23,863 nt of DNA from Escherichia coli (GTDB lineage Bacteria; Pseudomonadota; Gammaproteobacteria; Enterobacterales; Enterobacteriaceae), in the NCBI RefSeq assembly GCF_003334255.1, contig NZ_QOWU01000065.1; one strand, given 5' to 3'. Position 1 is the stretch's first letter, and each line of letters starts with the position of its first letter. The position numbers were made by a program, and so were the translations under genes. The notes beneath the pieces were generated by a model. The model made no database searches. It saw only the letters and a program-made list of their open reading frames with translations, and was not told the DNA's origin. This document shows, piece after piece, positions 2,116-8,726 of the stretch.

Positions 2116-2585
2116 AGGTAGATTATCTCCAGAATAAACTTCATCTATATCTATCTGTTTGAATTTAGTGAACAAATAGACAAAGACAAATTCATCTTCT
2201 GTCGGTCATTGCCGTAGCTCTGCCGACGATCTTATAGCTATTGAGAACTCTTGTTTCACAACCTATGTTTTAATTTCAAAACGTTCAATAATGAAACTTG
2301 TGTTTTGTTATGGGTGTCACATTTCGAATTTCATAATCCTGGCGTTTTTTATCGTTAAGATGCTGCGTTTTGCGCAGCACCCTCCTGTATCTTGATGAAT
2401 TTAATTGATTTTATTGCTTTCGTGACAGTGCCTGAACTCAATTTGTCAGGGGCTGTACTTTTTGTTCTTTCCTGGAACATCTCCATTTCGTGAACTTTTG
2501 CATGGAATTTTTCTTCTAATGAATGCAAAAATAAAATGAATAATTTCATTAGTGTGTTGTTTCCTCAACAGGCAAGGGAGGGATT
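2116..2585. promoter_or_regulatory. AT-rich divergent intergenic region carrying the promoters of both iolT-like genes
   Basis: About 470 bp with no convincing ORF between divergently oriented transporter genes; contains a short hairpin tgctgcg-ttttg-cgcagca near 2373-2391. The 64-aa ORF at 2355..2549 is judged spurious. Confidence 0.5.
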
Positions 2586-4022: not shown

Positions 4023-4037
4023 TACCTCTCCAATATT

Positions 4038-4067
4038 AGCGGAGAATATCCAGAGATATTCTCCGCT
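4038..4067 (+). other. Perfect 12-bp-arm stem-loop 16 bp downstream of iolT2 (possible terminator or protein-binding palindrome)
   Basis: agcggagaatat / atattctccgct with 6-nt loop ccagag; not followed by a U-tract. Confidence 0.4.
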
Positions 4068-4333
4068 GGTTACACAACCTTTACTCCCTCCAGCGAGTGC
4101 GCACAGGATATACCCTGTTGAAACCTCCCCAGTGTTTACCACCTCTATGTAACTAATTGATCCATAATAATATCGGCAAATAGGGTAAGTCTTCTTCTGC
4201 ATCATTATTTTATTGCGTATTCCTGGTGGGGGCCGTGCCGTAAATACGCTATATACAAAACAGGGAAATAATTTTAGAGAAGGTGGATAGCGATCTTATG
4301 AGCGTGTGTGGCGCAGAGTTGAATAATAAATAT

Positions 4334-4357
4334 CCTCCGGCATAGCCGGAGGTTTTT
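4334..4357. terminator. Canonical hairpin plus T-tract, possibly the pre-existing bidirectional terminator between the convergent iolT2 and iolB
   Basis: cctccggc-ata-gccggagg (8-bp perfect stem) followed by ttttt on the plus strand; an A/T-rich run also precedes it. It sits at the inferred right end of the IS200 copy. Confidence 0.5.
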
Positions 4358-4433
4358 CTGATGCGCCTGTAAGGCTCTCTTACCAGCCGCGTCCTAACAG
4401 GCGCATACGATCTGACATTTGCATCAAACTTCG

Positions 4434-4865
4434 TTACTTACGGCCCGTAAACGGGCTGCCCGTTTTATCCTCTTCAAGCTGGTGCTTTATGTATTCCCGT
4501 ATCTTCGCCGTGTTCTTACCCACCGTATCGACATAGTACCCTCTGCACCAGAACTCCCTGTTCCTGTATTTGAATTTTAGATCCCCAAACTGCTCGTAAA
4601 GCATCAGACTACTTTTACCCTTCAGATACCCCATGAAGCTCGACACACTCATCTTCGGCGGGATCTCCAGAAGCATGTGAATATGATCTGCACAACATTC
4701 CGCTTCCAGAATTCGTACGTTTTTCCATTCACACAATTTTCTTAATATGCTGCCTACTGCCCTACGCTTCTCTCCATAGAACGCTTGTCTTCGGTATTTG
4801 GGCGCGAAAACTATGTGATATTTACAGTTCCATCGGGTGTGCGCTAAGCTCTTTTCGTCCCCCAT
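4434..4865 (-). CDS. tnpA: IS200 transposase TnpA (HUH Y1 transposase), 143 aa as encoded here
   Basis: MGDEKSLAHTRWNCKYHIVFAPKYRRQ...ADHIHMLLEIPP...RGYYVDTVG, i.e. the HxH motif and catalytic Tyr region of IS200 TnpA. Start placed at the ATG at 4863-4865 (SD aaggggg); the ORF-track start at 4916 is a TTG in the 5' UTR. Confidence 0.9.
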   Translation of the reverse strand: MGDEKSLAHTRWNCKYHIVFAPKYRRQAFYGEKRRAVGSILRKLCEWKNVRILEAECCADHIHMLLEIPPKMSVSSFMGYLKGKSSLMLYEQFGDLKFKYRNREFWCRGYYVDTVGKNTAKIREYIKHQLEEDKTGSPFTGRK

Positions 4866-5007
4866 TGGGACCCCCTTTTGATTTCTTGTTGAACTTTTGC
4901 AGTTGCCAGACCGCAAGATGTTTTAACAAATCAAAAGGGGTTTTAATAACTGGCTTAAAGCTGAAAGCTTTCCGGCCCCCCCAGCCTAGCTGGGGGGGGG
5001 CATAGAC

Positions 5008-5036
5008 AAAAAAGCCAGCCGCAGAGGACGGCTGGC
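5008..5036 (-). terminator. Hairpin plus U-tract at the IS200 left end; also serves as terminator for iolB read-through
   Basis: On the minus strand gccagccg-tcctctg-cggctggc is followed by tttttt; it lies 22 bp downstream of the iolB stop at 5058-5060. Confidence 0.7.
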
Positions 5037-5057
5037 AAAGTACCACTCAACGAAGTG

Positions 5058-5867
5058 TTATCGCGGGTAGTCTGGTGAGTTAATCCACGCGTGGTTCTCT
5101 TCCCAGGTGAAACGCCATTTTCGTAGCGGGCCGGCCATCACGTTCAGATAGTAGTTATCGTAACCCGCGATGGTGGCAACCGGGTGGTAGCCTTTAGGTA
5201 CTTTCACTACATCCCGGTTATAGACCGCCATACATTCATCCAGGCTGCGATCGTCGGTGTAGACGCGCTGTAAGCAGAATCCCTGAGGTGGATTGAAACG
5301 GTGATAGTATGTCTCTTCCAGATAGGTCTCCTGGCCTTCAACTGCCGTATCGTGCTTGTGTGCGGGCCAGGAGCTGGTATCGCCTTCATTAGTGTACACT
5401 TCAACGACTAGCAGGCTGTCGGCGAGCTGGCTATCAGGAAGGATGTTATGCACCAGGCGCTGATTGCGCCCTTTTCCCCGATGCTCTACCCCGACCTCTT
5501 GTGGCGAGATCAGACGTACTGGAAGCTCTCCGAATCCCGGCGCGCTGCATACGGCCAGCTCAAGGTCGGTTTCGGCTGTCACTTTCGCCTCCGTATGATG
5601 GGGGAGGTAAACCGAATAAGCTGGAATGCGTTCAAACGGACTCATGCGCTGACCAATCCGATAGAAAAAACTGTCGGCGGCCTTAACGCTGGCCAGCCCG
5701 GCAACCAGCACCAGACAGCGTTCACGCTCATCGGACGGCAGGGTTATCGACTCTCCAGCCTTCAACTGCCAGACATCAAAACCGACATACTCCCAGCCTG
5801 CATTTTGAGGGGAAATGTGTTGGATATTTCCCGACTCAGAGGTACAGGTACTCAGCAAGTTGGCCAT
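5058..5867 (-). CDS. iolB: 5-deoxy-glucuronate isomerase IolB
   Basis: 269 aa; the C-terminal half (HRGKG...VHNILPDS...LLVVEVYT...HKHD...YLEETYYH...QRVYTDDRS...YYLNVMAGP) aligns with Bacillus IolB; SD aggag upstream; 24 bp after the iolA stop. Confidence 0.85.
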   Translation of the reverse strand: MANLLSTCTSESGNIQHISPQNAGWEYVGFDVWQLKAGESITLPSDERERCLVLVAGLASVKAADSFFYRIGQRMSPFERIPAYSVYLPHHTEAKVTAETDLELAVCSAPGFGELPVRLISPQEVGVEHRGKGRNQRLVHNILPDSQLADSLLVVEVYTNEGDTSSWPAHKHDTAVEGQETYLEETYYHRFNPPQGFCLQRVYTDDRSLDECMAVYNRDVVKVPKGYHPVATIAGYDNYYLNVMAGPLRKWRFTWEENHAWINSPDYPR

Positions 5868-5891: not shown

Positions 5892-7397
5892 TTAACCGAG
5901 AGTTGGCATACTGAACTCCGATACGATCTGCTGTCCGTTCGGCCAACGCGAGGTAACGGTTTTCATCCGGGTATAGAAGCGCACGCCATCCGGCCCATGG
6001 ACGTTCAGGGCGCCAAACACCGAGCGCTTCCAGCCGCCAAAAGAGTGAAATGCCATCGGAACCGGAACTGGAATATTAATACCGACCATCCCGGCTTCAA
6101 CCGACTGGGCGAATTCGCGCGCATAGTGACCGTTGGTGGTGAAAATCACGCTGCCGTTGCCGAATTCATGGGAGTTTACCGTGCTAATGGCGGTGGCATA
6201 ATCCGGGACGCGCACAATTCCGAGAACCGGGCCAAAAATTTCTTCACGCCAGATGGTCATCTCAGGCGTGACGTTATCAAACAGAGTGCCGCCGACATAA
6301 AAGCCTTCAGGATATCCCGCCACGCTATAGTTGCGGCCATCCATGACCAGAGTTGCTCCCTCGCTAACCCCTTTGTCGATGTAACCCAACACTTTCTGTT
6401 GATGAGCACGTGAAACAACCGGGCCCATTTCATTTTCATCTTTGCCGCGCAGCTCTCCCGGGCCGATACGTAGCGCCGCAATCAGCGGTTTCAGGCGTTC
6501 GATCAGACGGTCCGCCGTTTCATCGCCCACCGCGACCACTACCGGCAGCGCCATACAGCGTTCGCCCGCGGAACCAAATGCTCCGCCCATAATGGCGTTG
6601 ACGGTGGCGTCCAGATCTGCATCCGGCATGACGATTGCGTGATTTTTGGCGGCCCCGAAGGCCTGTACGCGTTTGCCATGGGCGCTGGCGGTGGTATAGA
6701 TATGTTCCGCGACGGCGGAGGAACCGACAAAGCTGACGGCCTGTACGCGAGGGTCGCTGGTCAACAGGCTAGCCGCCTCATTGCCACAGTGAACAACGTT
6801 AAACACGCCGTCCGGCAGGCCAGCCTCCTGCAGAAGCTGCGCCATACGTAACGATGCGGACGGCACCAGTGCGGGCGGCTTCAGGACGAAGGTATTGCCG
6901 CAAGCCAGAGCAACCGGGAACATCCACATAGGCACCATTGCCGGGAAGTTAAACGGTGTGATGCCTGCCACAACCCCAAGCGGCTGCATTAATGAAAAGC
7001 TGTCAACGCCTGAGCCGACGTTAAAGGAGTACTCTCCTTTGCTGAGATGCGGGATCCCGCAGGCAAATTCGACAACCTCTATGCCGCGCGTCAGTTCGCC
7101 AAGCGCATCTGACCAGACCTTGCCATGCTCGCTGACGATCAGCGCCGCCAGTTCGTCCCGATGCTTTTCCAGTAATACTTTGAATTCAAAAAGGATACGT
7201 GCCCGGCGTAGCGGAGTCATTTTACTCCATGCCGGAAAAGCCTCATGTGCGCTTTGAATTGCCGCCAGCATCTCCTCTCGGGTGCTCTGGGTGACCTGAC
7301 GAATTACTTTACCGGTGGCCGGATTAGCCACCGGTAGCGTCTCGCCGCTGCTGCTCAGTGTCGTTTTACCATGAATAAAATTGCCGACTGTTTCCAT
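5892..7397 (-). CDS. iolA: Methylmalonate-semialdehyde dehydrogenase (CoA-acylating) IolA, aldehyde dehydrogenase family
   Basis: 501-aa ORF with aldehyde-dehydrogenase architecture; first gene of the iolA-iolB pair; SD aagagga upstream of the ATG. Confidence 0.85.
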   Translation of the reverse strand: METVGNFIHGKTTLSSSGETLPVANPATGKVIRQVTQSTREEMLAAIQSAHEAFPAWSKMTPLRRARILFEFKVLLEKHRDELAALIVSEHGKVWSDALGELTRGIEVVEFACGIPHLSKGEYSFNVGSGVDSFSLMQPLGVVAGITPFNFPAMVPMWMFPVALACGNTFVLKPPALVPSASLRMAQLLQEAGLPDGVFNVVHCGNEAASLLTSDPRVQAVSFVGSSAVAEHIYTTASAHGKRVQAFGAAKNHAIVMPDADLDATVNAIMGGAFGSAGERCMALPVVVAVGDETADRLIERLKPLIAALRIGPGELRGKDENEMGPVVSRAHQQKVLGYIDKGVSEGATLVMDGRNYSVAGYPEGFYVGGTLFDNVTPEMTIWREEIFGPVLGIVRVPDYATAISTVNSHEFGNGSVIFTTNGHYAREFAQSVEAGMVGINIPVPVPMAFHSFGGWKRSVFGALNVHGPDGVRFYTRMKTVTSRWPNGQQIVSEFSMPTLG

Positions 7398-7786
7398 CTC
7401 TTTTTTATCCTCTTAAACCGATGTTGACGACGTTCTGACTGAGCGGTCACAGGAAAGCCTGGTTATCTTCAGCCTAAAACGCATACCGTATTCAATGTAA
7501 ATTTTAGGATTAAAAATTTCAAATCTATTTTTATGAAATTTTATTTTGAAAATTTGACGACTGATTTTTATACGAGGGTATGTGCAGTAAGAAATCAAAA
7601 ATCCAATTAACTTATTGATTTTTATTGTTTTTATTTGGTGTGATATCAATGGTTGTTTGTTGTGATGAGGAAAGATTTGGAAAAAATTATGATCTATATA
7701 GCATTTTTGTTTCATTTGGTGTAGTATAAAAATTCAAATTTCAGGGGTGTTTCGGCACCACAGTTTCGGATATTGGAGGGTAAATC
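7398..7786. promoter_or_regulatory. AT-rich divergent promoter region between iolA and reiD
   Basis: About 390 bp of AT-rich non-coding DNA between divergent genes. Direct repeats atttggtgt(g/a)(a/g)tat at 7634-7647 and 7714-7727, and gtttcgg at 7749-7755 and 7763-7769 just upstream of the reiD SD (ggaggg, 7773-7778). Confidence 0.5.
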
Positions 7787-8656
7787 ATGCGCTTGTGCTT
7801 CTGTCCTTCAGAACGAGAGAATAAGCCCCAGTTGGCGTATGTGAGTCAGGTCAGTGAGAGCAATGGTCCGTATGTCCGGTTCATGCATATGCACCCACAG
7901 ACCGTTGAACTGATTCTTATCACCGAAGGAGACGGGGAGTATTTCATTGGCGATCGCATCTACCCGGTTCGTAAAGGCGACCTGGTCATTTATAACAGCC
8001 AGGTGGTGCATGATGAGTATCTGGAAAGCGGGCGGCCAATTGGCACTATTTGTTGTGGGATTAACAATATTTCGTGTCCGGGTCTACGTGAGAATGCGCT
8101 AATACCGGATGATATTGTGCCGGTTATTCCACTGTATCACCATTATGCGACGGTGGAAAAACTGATGAGCTCCGTGTTTACCGTTATTAATCAGCATGCG
8201 GTGGAAGGGCCAGCAATGGCGCAGCTATTGACCCAGGTAGTACTCAAATACATTGAGGGAAATGTCTTATTGCGCACAGGTAACGATGCCATACAGCGCC
8301 ATGAAAATTTACTTGATTCAATAAAATCCTATATTGATCGCAATTTCTATGAGCCAATTCGGCTGGATACACTGGCGACGAAATTTAATGTCAGTCCTTA
8401 TTATGTTTCCCATGAATTTAAACGCCGCTATGGTTATTCACCGATGGATTACCTGATAAAACGTAGGCTGGGGGAGGCTCAATCGTTACTAACCACGGAT
8501 AAAGGCGGGCGCGAAAAGATCACCTCTATTGCCTATCGTGTTGGCTTTAGCAACCTTAGTCATTTTCAGAATTACTTCAAAAATAAAGTGGGGAAAACAC
8601 CCGGTCAATATCGCAAGGACTATCGTAAAGCTAATTATTTATTATTTGAATATTAA
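7787..8656 (+). CDS. reiD: AraC/XylS-family transcriptional activator with N-terminal cupin-like domain (ReiD-like)
   Basis: 289 aa; C-terminal tandem helix-turn-helix typical of AraC regulators (...SPYYVSHEFKRRYGYSPMDYLIKRRLGEAQ...IAYRVGFSNLSHFQNYFK...). Position between iolA and iolE matches the described island layout. Confidence 0.75.
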   Translation: MRLCFCPSERENKPQLAYVSQVSESNGPYVRFMHMHPQTVELILITEGDGEYFIGDRIYPVRKGDLVIYNSQVVHDEYLESGRPIGTICCGINNISCPGLRENALIPDDIVPVIPLYHHYATVEKLMSSVFTVINQHAVEGPAMAQLLTQVVLKYIEGNVLLRTGNDAIQRHENLLDSIKSYIDRNFYEPIRLDTLATKFNVSPYYVSHEFKRRYGYSPMDYLIKRRLGEAQSLLTTDKGGREKITSIAYRVGFSNLSHFQNYFKNKVGKTPGQYRKDYRKANYLLFEY

Positions 8657-8715: not shown

Positions 8716-8726
8716 TTATTCCTAAA

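Follow-up and report, generated by a model that had tools for sequence, protein, structure and literature searches.

Conserved promoter cores, and a repeat pair that is probably not a conserved operator, in what is most likely the Escherichia coli copy of a Salmonella-type iolA/reiD control region

The genes iolA and reiD, the latter encoding the activator that starts myo-inositol breakdown, face away from one another across a 389-bp intergenic region (positions 7398-7786) within the 23,863-nucleotide stretch of DNA that was analysed here (‘the window’). This divergent region holds both promoters (PiolA and PreiD) as well as the reiD leader. The names iolA, iolB and reiD are identical to those given by PGAP at the twin locus of E. 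coli, and the gene order (iolT1, iolT2, iolB, iolA, reiD, iolE, iolG1, srfJ onward) matches GEI4417/4436, the myo-inositol island of Salmonella. The GC content falls from 0.57 in iolA and 0.445 in reiD (0.50 across the window) to 0.31 in the intergenic region and 0.24 in its core (7480-7740), an AT excess over both the flanks and the window of the kind that marks H-NS-silenced xenogeneic promoters. A sequence-only reading had described an AT-rich control region between the two divergent genes, and its coordinates, flanks and composition all hold. At the gathering threshold, Rfam has no match within 7398-7786, its sole match being the STnc490 of IS200 (4875-4998), and a 100-aa open reading frame annotated by PGAP on the minus strand (7413-7715) was treated as spurious, as it has no family match and lies in indel-rich, poorly conserved DNA. 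The identity of the region offers nothing new, this being an already characterised control region; its features are collected in Table 1.

Table 1. Features of the iolA/reiD region and its flanking genes, in window coordinates
Feature	Coordinates	Strand	Remarks
rssR (STnc2160), sRNA	5007-5075	-	iolB 3' end; 2 differences from 14028
iolB	5058-5867	-	
iolA	5892-7397	-	TIGR01722, 646 bits
Predicted PiolA core	7494-7522	-	-35 TTGAAA 7522-7517; 17-nt spacer; -10 TACATT 7499-7494; from consensus scan
Candidate IolR operator O_A1, AGGATTAAAAATTTCA	7506-7521		Overlaps PiolA -35 and spacer; TGGAT-N6-TTTCA in other genera
Candidate IolR operator O_A2, TGAAATTTTATTTTGA	7534-7549		9/10
Repeat copy 1 with extended likeness	7622-7649 (core 7633-7646)	+	About -104 to -91 of reiD start; in non-conserved spacer
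CRP-like box, AATTATGATCTATATAGCATTT	7685-7706		Centre about -41 of reiD start
Weaker IolR-type palindrome, TAGCATTTTTGTTTCA	7699-7714		8/10; PreiD -35 zone; within PreiD1 fragment
Repeat copy 2	7714-7727	+	PreiD spacer, extended -10 and first half of -10; about -23 to -10
PreiD extended -10 and -10	7722-7737		TAGTATAAA here; TGnTATAAA in relatives; -10 TATAAA 7725-7730
Weaker IolR-type palindrome, TGGTATAAAAATTCAA	7722-7737		8/10 in 14028, 7/10 here (hand count); within PreiD2 fragment
reiD 5' leader, about 51 nt	7736-7786	+	Equals published UTRreiD RNA oligo
GTTTCGG copy 1	7749-7755	+	In leader; altered, with preceding G-run, in Mut2UTRreiD
GTTTCGG copy 2	7763-7769	+	In leader; altered, with CACCAC, in Mut3UTRreiD
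Shine-Dalgarno GGAGGG	7775-7780	+	reiD ATG at 7787
reiD	7787-8656	+	AraC family

Over positions 7300-7900 the window is 99.5-99.7% identical to a chromosomal locus found in seven of 5,426 complete E. coli genomes (STO_Bone1B, for example), and these chromosomal islands bear the window’s own insertion sequences; only two bases within 7398-7786 differ from the E. coli twin, and the copy on a Salmonella IncHI2 plasmid is 97.5% identical. Because its best matches are to these E. coli chromosomal islands, the window most probably carries the version of the Salmonella-type myo-inositol island that is found in E. coli. In S. Typhimurium 14028 (GEI4417/4436), the PiolA/PreiD region has the same genes, orientation and 389-bp length and is about 97-98% identical. 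The window differs from 14028 in a G to A change at position 7723 (which falls in the extended -10 and in an IolR-like half-site), in a 6-nt deletion within reiD, in the IS200 copies that flank its iolBA-reiD block, and in being better matched (99.7%) by the rare E. coli chromosomal island. Most likely, E. coli is the background of this Salmonella-type island, which is accompanied there by insertion sequences and by a point change in the promoter that may influence its inducibility. E. coli K-12 is not known to carry SsrB.

All of the published binding data considered below come from S. Typhimurium 14028, not from the window’s own allele. The corresponding primers and oligonucleotides could be mapped onto the window with zero to two mismatches, and every published site of this kind in 14028 is also found in the window. 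By this mapping, the two ‘PreiD1’ and ‘PreiD2’ fragments span 7651-7724 and 7718-7798, a fragment used for surface plasmon resonance (SPR) spans 7637-7762, and the UTRreiD RNA spans 7736-7786.

For comparison across genera, iolA-reiD regions were aligned from Salmonella-type alleles (L001-L003) and a Salmonella plasmid (L096), from a second E. coli island (L095, 72% identity), from a metagenome contig (L004, ReiD identity 88%), from a Phytobacter-like genome (L093, 84%) and from Gibbsiella quercinecans (L092, 74%). The relatives were obtained by a search for ReiD-encoding contigs and from an E. coli collection; a scan of genome contigs with a ReiD alignment supplied only two useful relatives, its strict peptide patterns having missed Salmonella, Gibbsiella and Brenneria. 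Two further loci (L009 and L011), whose ReiD-like genes (70% and 60% identity) have no iolA neighbour, were left out.

Two deeply conserved blocks emerged, extending from Salmonella to Gibbsiella (ReiD identity 74%). Block A (7495-7548) comprises the predicted -10 (TACATT) and -35 (TTGAAA) of PiolA, on the minus strand, together with their flanks. Block B (7686-7737) comprises TTATGATCT and, after a gap, ATAGCATTT, followed by TTTCATTT, the extended -10 (TGnTATAAA) and an invariant AAAAATTCAA over the start site of reiD. The 135 bp between the blocks are AT-rich and not alignable. The blocks lie 170-172 bp apart in the alleles of Salmonella and E. coli, in the metagenome contig and in the Phytobacter-like genome; strict conservation of this distance was considered and rejected, since it is 163 bp in the second E. 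coli island and 188 bp in Gibbsiella. Downstream of the start site, the leader is 51 nt long in the Salmonella/E. coli lineage and in the second E. coli island, and about 150-200 nt long, and unrelated, in the metagenome contig, the Phytobacter-like genome and Gibbsiella.

The hexamers of PiolA are kept in all relatives (the -10 reads TACAGT in Gibbsiella), and the predicted start of iolA lies near 7487. For PreiD, the 5' end of the published RNA oligonucleotide places the start of reiD at about 7736, which is six to seven bases past the TATAAA hexamer. There is no good -35. One of the cloning primers, which carries the reiD start site in its label, begins at 7479 and may point to a distal start (PMC6288124).

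Upstream of the PreiD -10 lies a CRP-like box that matches the CRP consensus at 17 of 22 positions, the best match in the window (the next best reaches 15), with a core of TATGA-N6-TAGCA (7/10) in which the consensus bases G5 and C16, both of them key positions, are missing. Across genera the box is conserved, its right half reading TAACA in the second E. coli island. Its centre (7695/7696) falls at -40.5 or -41.5 according to whether the start is taken as 7736 or 7737, which is the class II position. Class II CRP-dependent promoters, such as galP1, carry their box near -41. PreiD has in common with them a CRP-like box of 22 bp near that position, the lack of a usable -35 and (in most alleles) an extended -10; its box differs in being degenerate (17/22, core 7/10), and it was missed by the published scan. 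The 7685-7706 element is thus read as the probable CRP box of a class II-type PreiD, with CRP contacts placed by inference, and it is graded no higher than probable because its core is degenerate. CRP is required for growth on inositol, and in strain 14028 it binds the 7637-7762 fragment stably, at 6-11 nM, even though a scan by the same authors had not picked out a CRP consensus site for reiD; the same study saw no binding of SsrB to PiolA or PreiD (PMC10783015). Transcription of reiD would proceed rightwards from about 7736, from a TATAAA that usually follows TGn, with no good -35 and a CRP-like box near -41.

Repression and silencing have likewise been described for this region. IolR binds both PiolA and PreiD, the latter through two fragments (74 and 81 bp) with a 7-nt overlap, and the two PreiD sites are independent, one with an affinity in the low-nM range and the other of about 300 nM (PMC5349611). 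H-NS binds PiolA at 50-65 nM and PreiD at 0.2-1 uM, as judged by electrophoretic mobility shift and SPR, and silences PreiD (PMC10783015). The expectation, raised from sequence, that IolR acts here is supported by the sites within PreiD1 (7651-7724) and PreiD2 (7718-7798) (PMC5349611), as is the expectation that an AT-rich island promoter of this type is a target of nucleoid proteins, through the H-NS binding published for PiolA and PreiD (PMC10783015). PreiD resembles other H-NS-silenced island promoters in its AT excess, its island context and its binding of H-NS, with a modest affinity (0.2-1 uM) and nothing unusual about it; the AT-rich, non-conserved 135 bp between the promoter cores would be the H-NS-bound part. 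Binding of ReiD within 7398-7786, for which an assay had been suggested, is not supported by the literature, since ReiD is reported to act on PiolE and not on this region (PMC5349611).

The same reading had drawn attention to two pairs of direct repeats as candidate regulator-binding or promoter elements. The shorter of these is the heptamer GTTTCGG, whose two copies are indeed found 14 bp apart (start to start) upstream of the reiD Shine-Dalgarno sequence. The heptamer occurs three times in the window as compared with 3.4 expected, and as a short repeat at a 14-bp spacing it is, on its own, statistically unremarkable; in the leader of the second E. coli island the corresponding heptamers are GTTTTGG and GATTCGG. 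Both copies lie in the transcribed leader that begins at about 7736, at the positions altered in the Mut2 and Mut3 variants of the published RNA, and so they are not the promoter elements for which they had been taken. The sRNA RssR, whose gene is also present in the window, binds a 50-nt RNA that stands for the reiD 5' UTR at 5.7 nM and stabilises the mRNA of reiD in strain 14028 (PMC6288124). In SPR measurements the Mut2UTRreiD changes weaken this affinity from 5.7 nM to 2.7 uM, and the Mut3UTRreiD changes leave it near wild type (9.5 nM) with the maximal response halved (PMC6288124). The predicted pairing between RssR and the leader (-20.9 kcal/mol by RNAduplex) is no better than that of shuffled leaders (-21.5 +/- 3.6), nor does cofolding improve on this, so that a role for the leader at the level of RNA rests on the published assays; in such a role, RssR would dock on the leader and the reiD mRNA would be stabilised.

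The longer repeat, ATTTGGTGTNNTAT, is found exactly at 7633-7646 and 7714-7727, as had been reported, with a start-to-start spacing of 81 bp in place of the 80 bp originally given. Across the window, 0.11 matches to it would be expected; its significance was judged inside the AT-rich region and not window-wide. The longest exact direct repeat within 7398-7786 is an unrelated 10-mer that is equalled in 25% of dinucleotide shuffles and is not significant. A 17/21 match around the ATTTGGTGTNNTAT copies is reached in 2.7% of shuffles within the AT-rich region, and when 7622-7649 is aligned locally, with gaps, to 7704-7730 (score 24), the P value is about 0.015-0.02. The pair is therefore marginally beyond chance, given how rarely that match and that alignment appear among shuffles. 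In the Salmonella alleles the likeness of copy 1 to the PreiD core extends over 28-55 nt, taking in the region of the CRP-like box in L003, and three of them reach a P value of at most 0.004 against mononucleotide shuffles.

One explanation of both repeat pairs is that they are chance similarities in low-complexity, AT-rich DNA, meaningful only through the elements they overlap. Exact 9- to 10-mers recur within the region in 25% of shuffles, GTTTCGG appears at the rate expected by chance in the window, and neither repeat is kept across genera. Against this stand the 17/21 match and the gapped alignment, attained by only 1.5-2.7% of shuffles (and by at most 0.4% in three Salmonella alleles), along with the effect of the region of the first GTTTCGG on the binding of RssR in vitro (PMC6288124). 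We regard chance as an unlikely account of the two pairs, if one that retains real weight.

Comparison across relatives also bears on the longer repeat. In the alignment, neither the ATTTGGTGT cores nor GTTTCGG are kept across genera, unlike the elements that neighbour them. At copy 2 the place of the core reads TTTTAAGTG in the metagenome contig and the Phytobacter-like genome, AAATTAATG in Gibbsiella and TTTTTTTAT in the second E. coli island, and even the Salmonella plasmid allele reads ATTTGCTGT. Copy 1 has no counterpart among relatives outside the Salmonella/E. coli lineage; no likeness of its type to the promoter core was seen in the metagenome contig, the Phytobacter-like genome or Gibbsiella, and the bases beside its core differ even among alleles (GATAT, GGCAT, GTCAT and GGTAT). 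The proposal that the two copies are regulator-binding elements is undercut by this absence of the ATTTGGTGT core outside Salmonella and E. coli, and also by position: the smaller fragments bound by IolR do not include copy 1, and copy 2 coincides with the PreiD spacer, extended -10 and -10.

The most developed form of that proposal would make the two ATTTGGTGT copies paired sites of a single regulator (a high- and a low-affinity site for IolR, or sites for autoregulation by ReiD), with bridging across 81 bp tightening repression. Several observations lean towards it, including the somewhat non-random likeness of the copies, the fact that IolR oligomerises and has two sites at PreiD (PMC5349611), the extent of the SPR fragment, which begins within copy 1 and contains copy 2, and the similarity of TGGTG to a TGGAA half-site. 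The small fragments speak otherwise. Copy 1 lies upstream of PreiD1, so that IolR binds the small fragments in its absence, PreiD1 itself included, and PreiD2 still binds although it retains only GGTGTGGTAT of copy 2. Moreover, the cores are not kept in the metagenome contig, the Phytobacter-like genome, Gibbsiella or the second E. coli island despite the presence there of both iolR and reiD, copy 2 carries ATTTGCTGT in the Salmonella plasmid allele, and 81 bp corresponds to 7.7 helical turns. With respect to IolR, copy 1 contains no palindrome of the IolR type at 8/10 or better, and copy 2 merely abuts or overlaps the half-sites of the palindromes at 7699-7714 and 7722-7737. With respect to ReiD, the ATTTGGTGTNNTAT motif is not shared by PiolE, the known ReiD target, and the copies do not form the adjacent direct repeats reaching -35 that are associated with AraC-type activators, as they lie 81 bp apart with copy 2 at -23 to -10. 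What looked like a third copy of ATTTGGTGTNNTAT in PiolE (TTTTTATTTGTCGGTATAT) is not conserved and turned out to be the T-run of the terminator of reiD. Paired sites of one regulator therefore appear very unlikely.

A different possibility is that reiD has a second promoter upstream, at copy 1 (‘P2’), which would derive from partial duplication of the core and give a leader some 130 nt long. The sequence of copy 1 in some alleles, TGGTATCAA, is similar to an extended -10; the likeness of copy 1 to the core reaches about 55 nt, including the CRP-like box, in L003; and the cloning primer that begins at 7479 hints that a longer transcript was considered by its authors. The hexamer at this position, however, is variable (GATATC, GGCATC, GTCATC or GGTATC) and ends in A or C instead of T, the consensus scan returned no plus-strand promoter at copy 1, and the intergenic region is no longer than that of relatives and bears no trace of an inserted duplicate. 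A P2 of this kind is highly improbable. A tandem duplication that would have added 81 bp in Salmonella was rejected as well, because the Salmonella-type region is not longer than that of its relatives (the blocks being 170-172 bp apart in the metagenome contig and the Phytobacter-like genome too), which excludes a simple 81-bp insertion.

We consider it likely, taking these points together, that the locus is simply the known divergent PiolA/PreiD region of a Salmonella-type island and that the ATTTGGTGTNNTAT copies do not represent a conserved operator. The best reading of copy 2 is as the promoter core of PreiD itself, and copy 1 looks like a lineage-specific, imperfect likeness to that core, its origin as a partial copy being an inference from the alignments. 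What stands of the sequence-only interpretation is the divergent region, its silencing and its binding by IolR; what falls is the role given to the repeats. Since the regulation of PreiD is already published, this adds little to it. The interest of the promoter lies in its integration of IolR, H-NS, CRP and the sRNA RssR and in its place beneath the very long and bistable lag that Salmonella shows on inositol, and the value of a base-level map lies in indicating that the eye-catching repeats are not conserved control elements and that mutagenesis would be better aimed elsewhere.

Candidate targets for IolR were found in the iol promoter DNA. The gene for IolR lies just outside the window and is encoded in the E. 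coli twin locus, in Gibbsiella and in the Phytobacter-like genome; the island’s IolR matches HexR/MurR/RpiR and has HTH_6 and SIS domains, which place it in the RpiR family. In Caulobacter, the target of an RpiR-type IolR is the palindrome GGAA-N6-TTCC, in many cases present twice in a promoter; the protein protects this palindrome, and its mutation relieves repression (PMC2597717). For Salmonella, according to two papers, it was not possible to derive a consensus site for IolR (PMC4513076). The exact Caulobacter form has no match in the window, and only an AT-relaxed form, TGRAA-N6-TTYCA, does. Matches to it of at least 9/10 number five in the three iol promoter regions of the window (1203 bp) as compared with 0.69 expected, and none of 1000 shuffles reaches five, with the proviso that the third half-site position was relaxed to R/Y only once the data had been seen; scans of Gibbsiella and of the Phytobacter-like genome had a similar outcome. 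Three taxa share a palindrome that lies some 30 bp upstream of the ATG of iolR.

At PiolA, O_A1 and O_A2 span the -35 and the stretch upstream of it, and their inner halves form a conserved dyad, TTTCA-N12-TGRAA (7517-7538; TTTCA-N12-TGAAA here). In its exact form (TTTCA-N12-TGAAA) this dyad is confined to PiolA until spacing and half-sites are relaxed; as TTTCA-N12/13-TGRAA it occurs once in each of three IolR-regulated divergent regions (at 2274, 7517 and 18785), with a chance probability of about 0.02 per region, and it recurs at the orthologous PiolA and PiolC of other genera with nearly no further matches in 20-kb loci. A sigma-70 PiolA would drive iolA-iolB leftwards, and two overlapping RpiR-type palindromes would occlude it. 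At PreiD, the palindromes at 7699-7714 and 7722-7737 would cover the -35 and the -10/+1 zones, respectively. One weak palindrome falls in each of the published IolR-bound fragments, which fits two independent sites. The second of these has only seven of ten matches here because 7723 is A, and it is not among the window palindromes scoring at least 8; and since the PreiD palindromes overlap the -10, their conservation could reflect the promoter alone.

TGRAA-N6-TTYCA is accordingly put forward as a candidate IolR operator of the Enterobacterales, in which the bases contacted by IolR are predicted by computation. The likeness to the Caulobacter crescentus operators consists in the same repressor family and in a 5-6-5 palindrome that is often paired and lies upstream of iolC, iolA and transporter genes; the half-sites here differ in being AT-shifted (TGRAA/TTYCA), in several cases imperfect, and candidates, and the direct repeats noted earlier are not such palindromes. 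The motif, which may already be listed in curated regulon databases, is a modest by-product of the analysis, although a testable one. In a bolder version, to which we give only a slight chance, pairs of TGRAA-N6-TTYCA at PiolA and PreiD, in cores 163-188 bp apart, would constitute the enterobacterial IolR operator sought in the Salmonella studies, and in the Salmonella/E. coli lineage the copy of ATTTGGTGT 81 bp upstream of the PreiD core would serve as an auxiliary low-affinity contact; if this were true, IolR oligomers could bridge the whole region, and their cooperativity could contribute to the bistable, long-lag induction of growth on inositol.

The window and the matching E. coli chromosomes (for example L094, the locus at 634295-668895 of NZ_CP054169.1) carry a Salmonella-type myo-inositol island in E. 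coli. Among 5,426 complete E. coli genomes, seven, all from human sources, possess a chromosomal copy that is 99.5-99.7% identical to the window over the compared interval (7300-7900), while an eighth harbors a variant island (L095) that is 72% identical. The E. coli copy of the island includes the srfJ effector gene, and IS110, IS200 (two copies), IS91 and IS66 are scattered over it.

Both IS200 copies are inserted directly after an intrinsic terminator. By comparison with the S. Typhimurium 14028 sequence, the insertion point of the first copy is the exact distal edge of the terminator T-run shared by iolB and RssR (the sRNA at the iolB 3' end); the region of a second sRNA, STnc1740 (4023-4324), is intact, yet has been parted from iolB by the element. 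The second copy, which is decayed, lies immediately 3' of the reiD terminator T-run (directly following GCGGCCATTTTTTATT) and approximately 115 bp 5' of the published start of iolE. This copy has displaced the sequence upstream of PiolE by approximately 620 bp, and extends the gap between reiD and iolE from 274 to 877 bp.

Within the divergent iolA/reiD control region, the window and the E. coli genomes that carry the island have in common a G to A change at 7723, which converts the extended -10 element of PreiD from TGGTATAAA to TAGTATAAA. The TGn of this element is present in all other alleles and genera that were examined, and the same substitution also weakens a half-site of an overlapping candidate IolR-type palindrome. 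Transcription of reiD in the E. coli lineage could be either lowered or de-repressed by this change. The same AT-rich region, which is rich in indels between genera, contains an open reading frame of 100 aa that spans both promoter cores and gave no family match; it is probably not a gene.

Selected features, in window coordinates
Feature	Coordinates	Strand	Remark
100-aa ORF	7413-7715	-	annotations of E. coli and Salmonella list it as a hypothetical protein (WP_071602938.1, WP_071786680.1)
IS200 copy 1	4325-5007		683 bp
tnpA of IS200 copy 1	4434-4916	-	
STnc490 leader RNA of IS200 copy 1	4875-4998	-	
IS200 copy 2, decayed	about 8716-9330		frameshifted tnpA, ORF 8965-9255
Further candidate IolR-type palindromes/dyads	2274-2296, 2503-2518		iolT1/iolT2 divergent promoter
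Further candidate IolR-type palindromes/dyads	18785-18818, 18936-18951, 19017-19032		iolC/iolD divergent promoter

The start of reiD assigned by PGAP is a TTG at 7832 (17533 in L094), which yields a product of 274 residues. Published work on reiD uses the ATG that corresponds to 7787; this codon is preceded by GGAGGG and generates an N-terminus (MRLCFC) that is kept in 15 orthologues. The database start probably truncates the gene by 15 codons. Compared with the alleles of Salmonella, codons 13-14 (at 7824) bear an in-frame deletion of 6 nt (AATAAG joined to CCCCAG, versus AATAAGGCTCAGCCCCAG), leaving a product of 289 rather than 291 residues.

In the Salmonella/E. coli lineage, as in L095, the reiD leader is approximately 51 nt long (7736-7786 in the window); it is approximately 150-200 nt long, with unrelated sequence, in a metagenome contig (L004, 948), a Phytobacter-like locus (L093, 10001) and Gibbsiella quercinecans (L092, 10001). 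Because the non-coding part of RssR is also lineage-specific (alignment A3), the sRNA layer acting on reiD seems, from these comparisons, to be a recent addition. In one relative, L005, whose ReiD is 86% identical, a gene for an aldo-keto reductase (2002-2967) is situated between iolA and reiD and ends only 33 bp before the latter, so that reiD in that locus is probably co-transcribed, without a promoter core of its own.

Two of the palindromes that match the candidate IolR operator layout (TGRAA-N6-TTYCA) are perfect at 10 of 10 positions: TGGAATGACGTTTTCA at 18803 and TGGAAGATAAATTTCA at 18936. Since this 5-6-5 layout and the CRP consensus have three positions in common per half-site, the CRP sites predicted in the literature for the iolT1/iolT2 and iolC/iolD promoters might partly be IolR sites.
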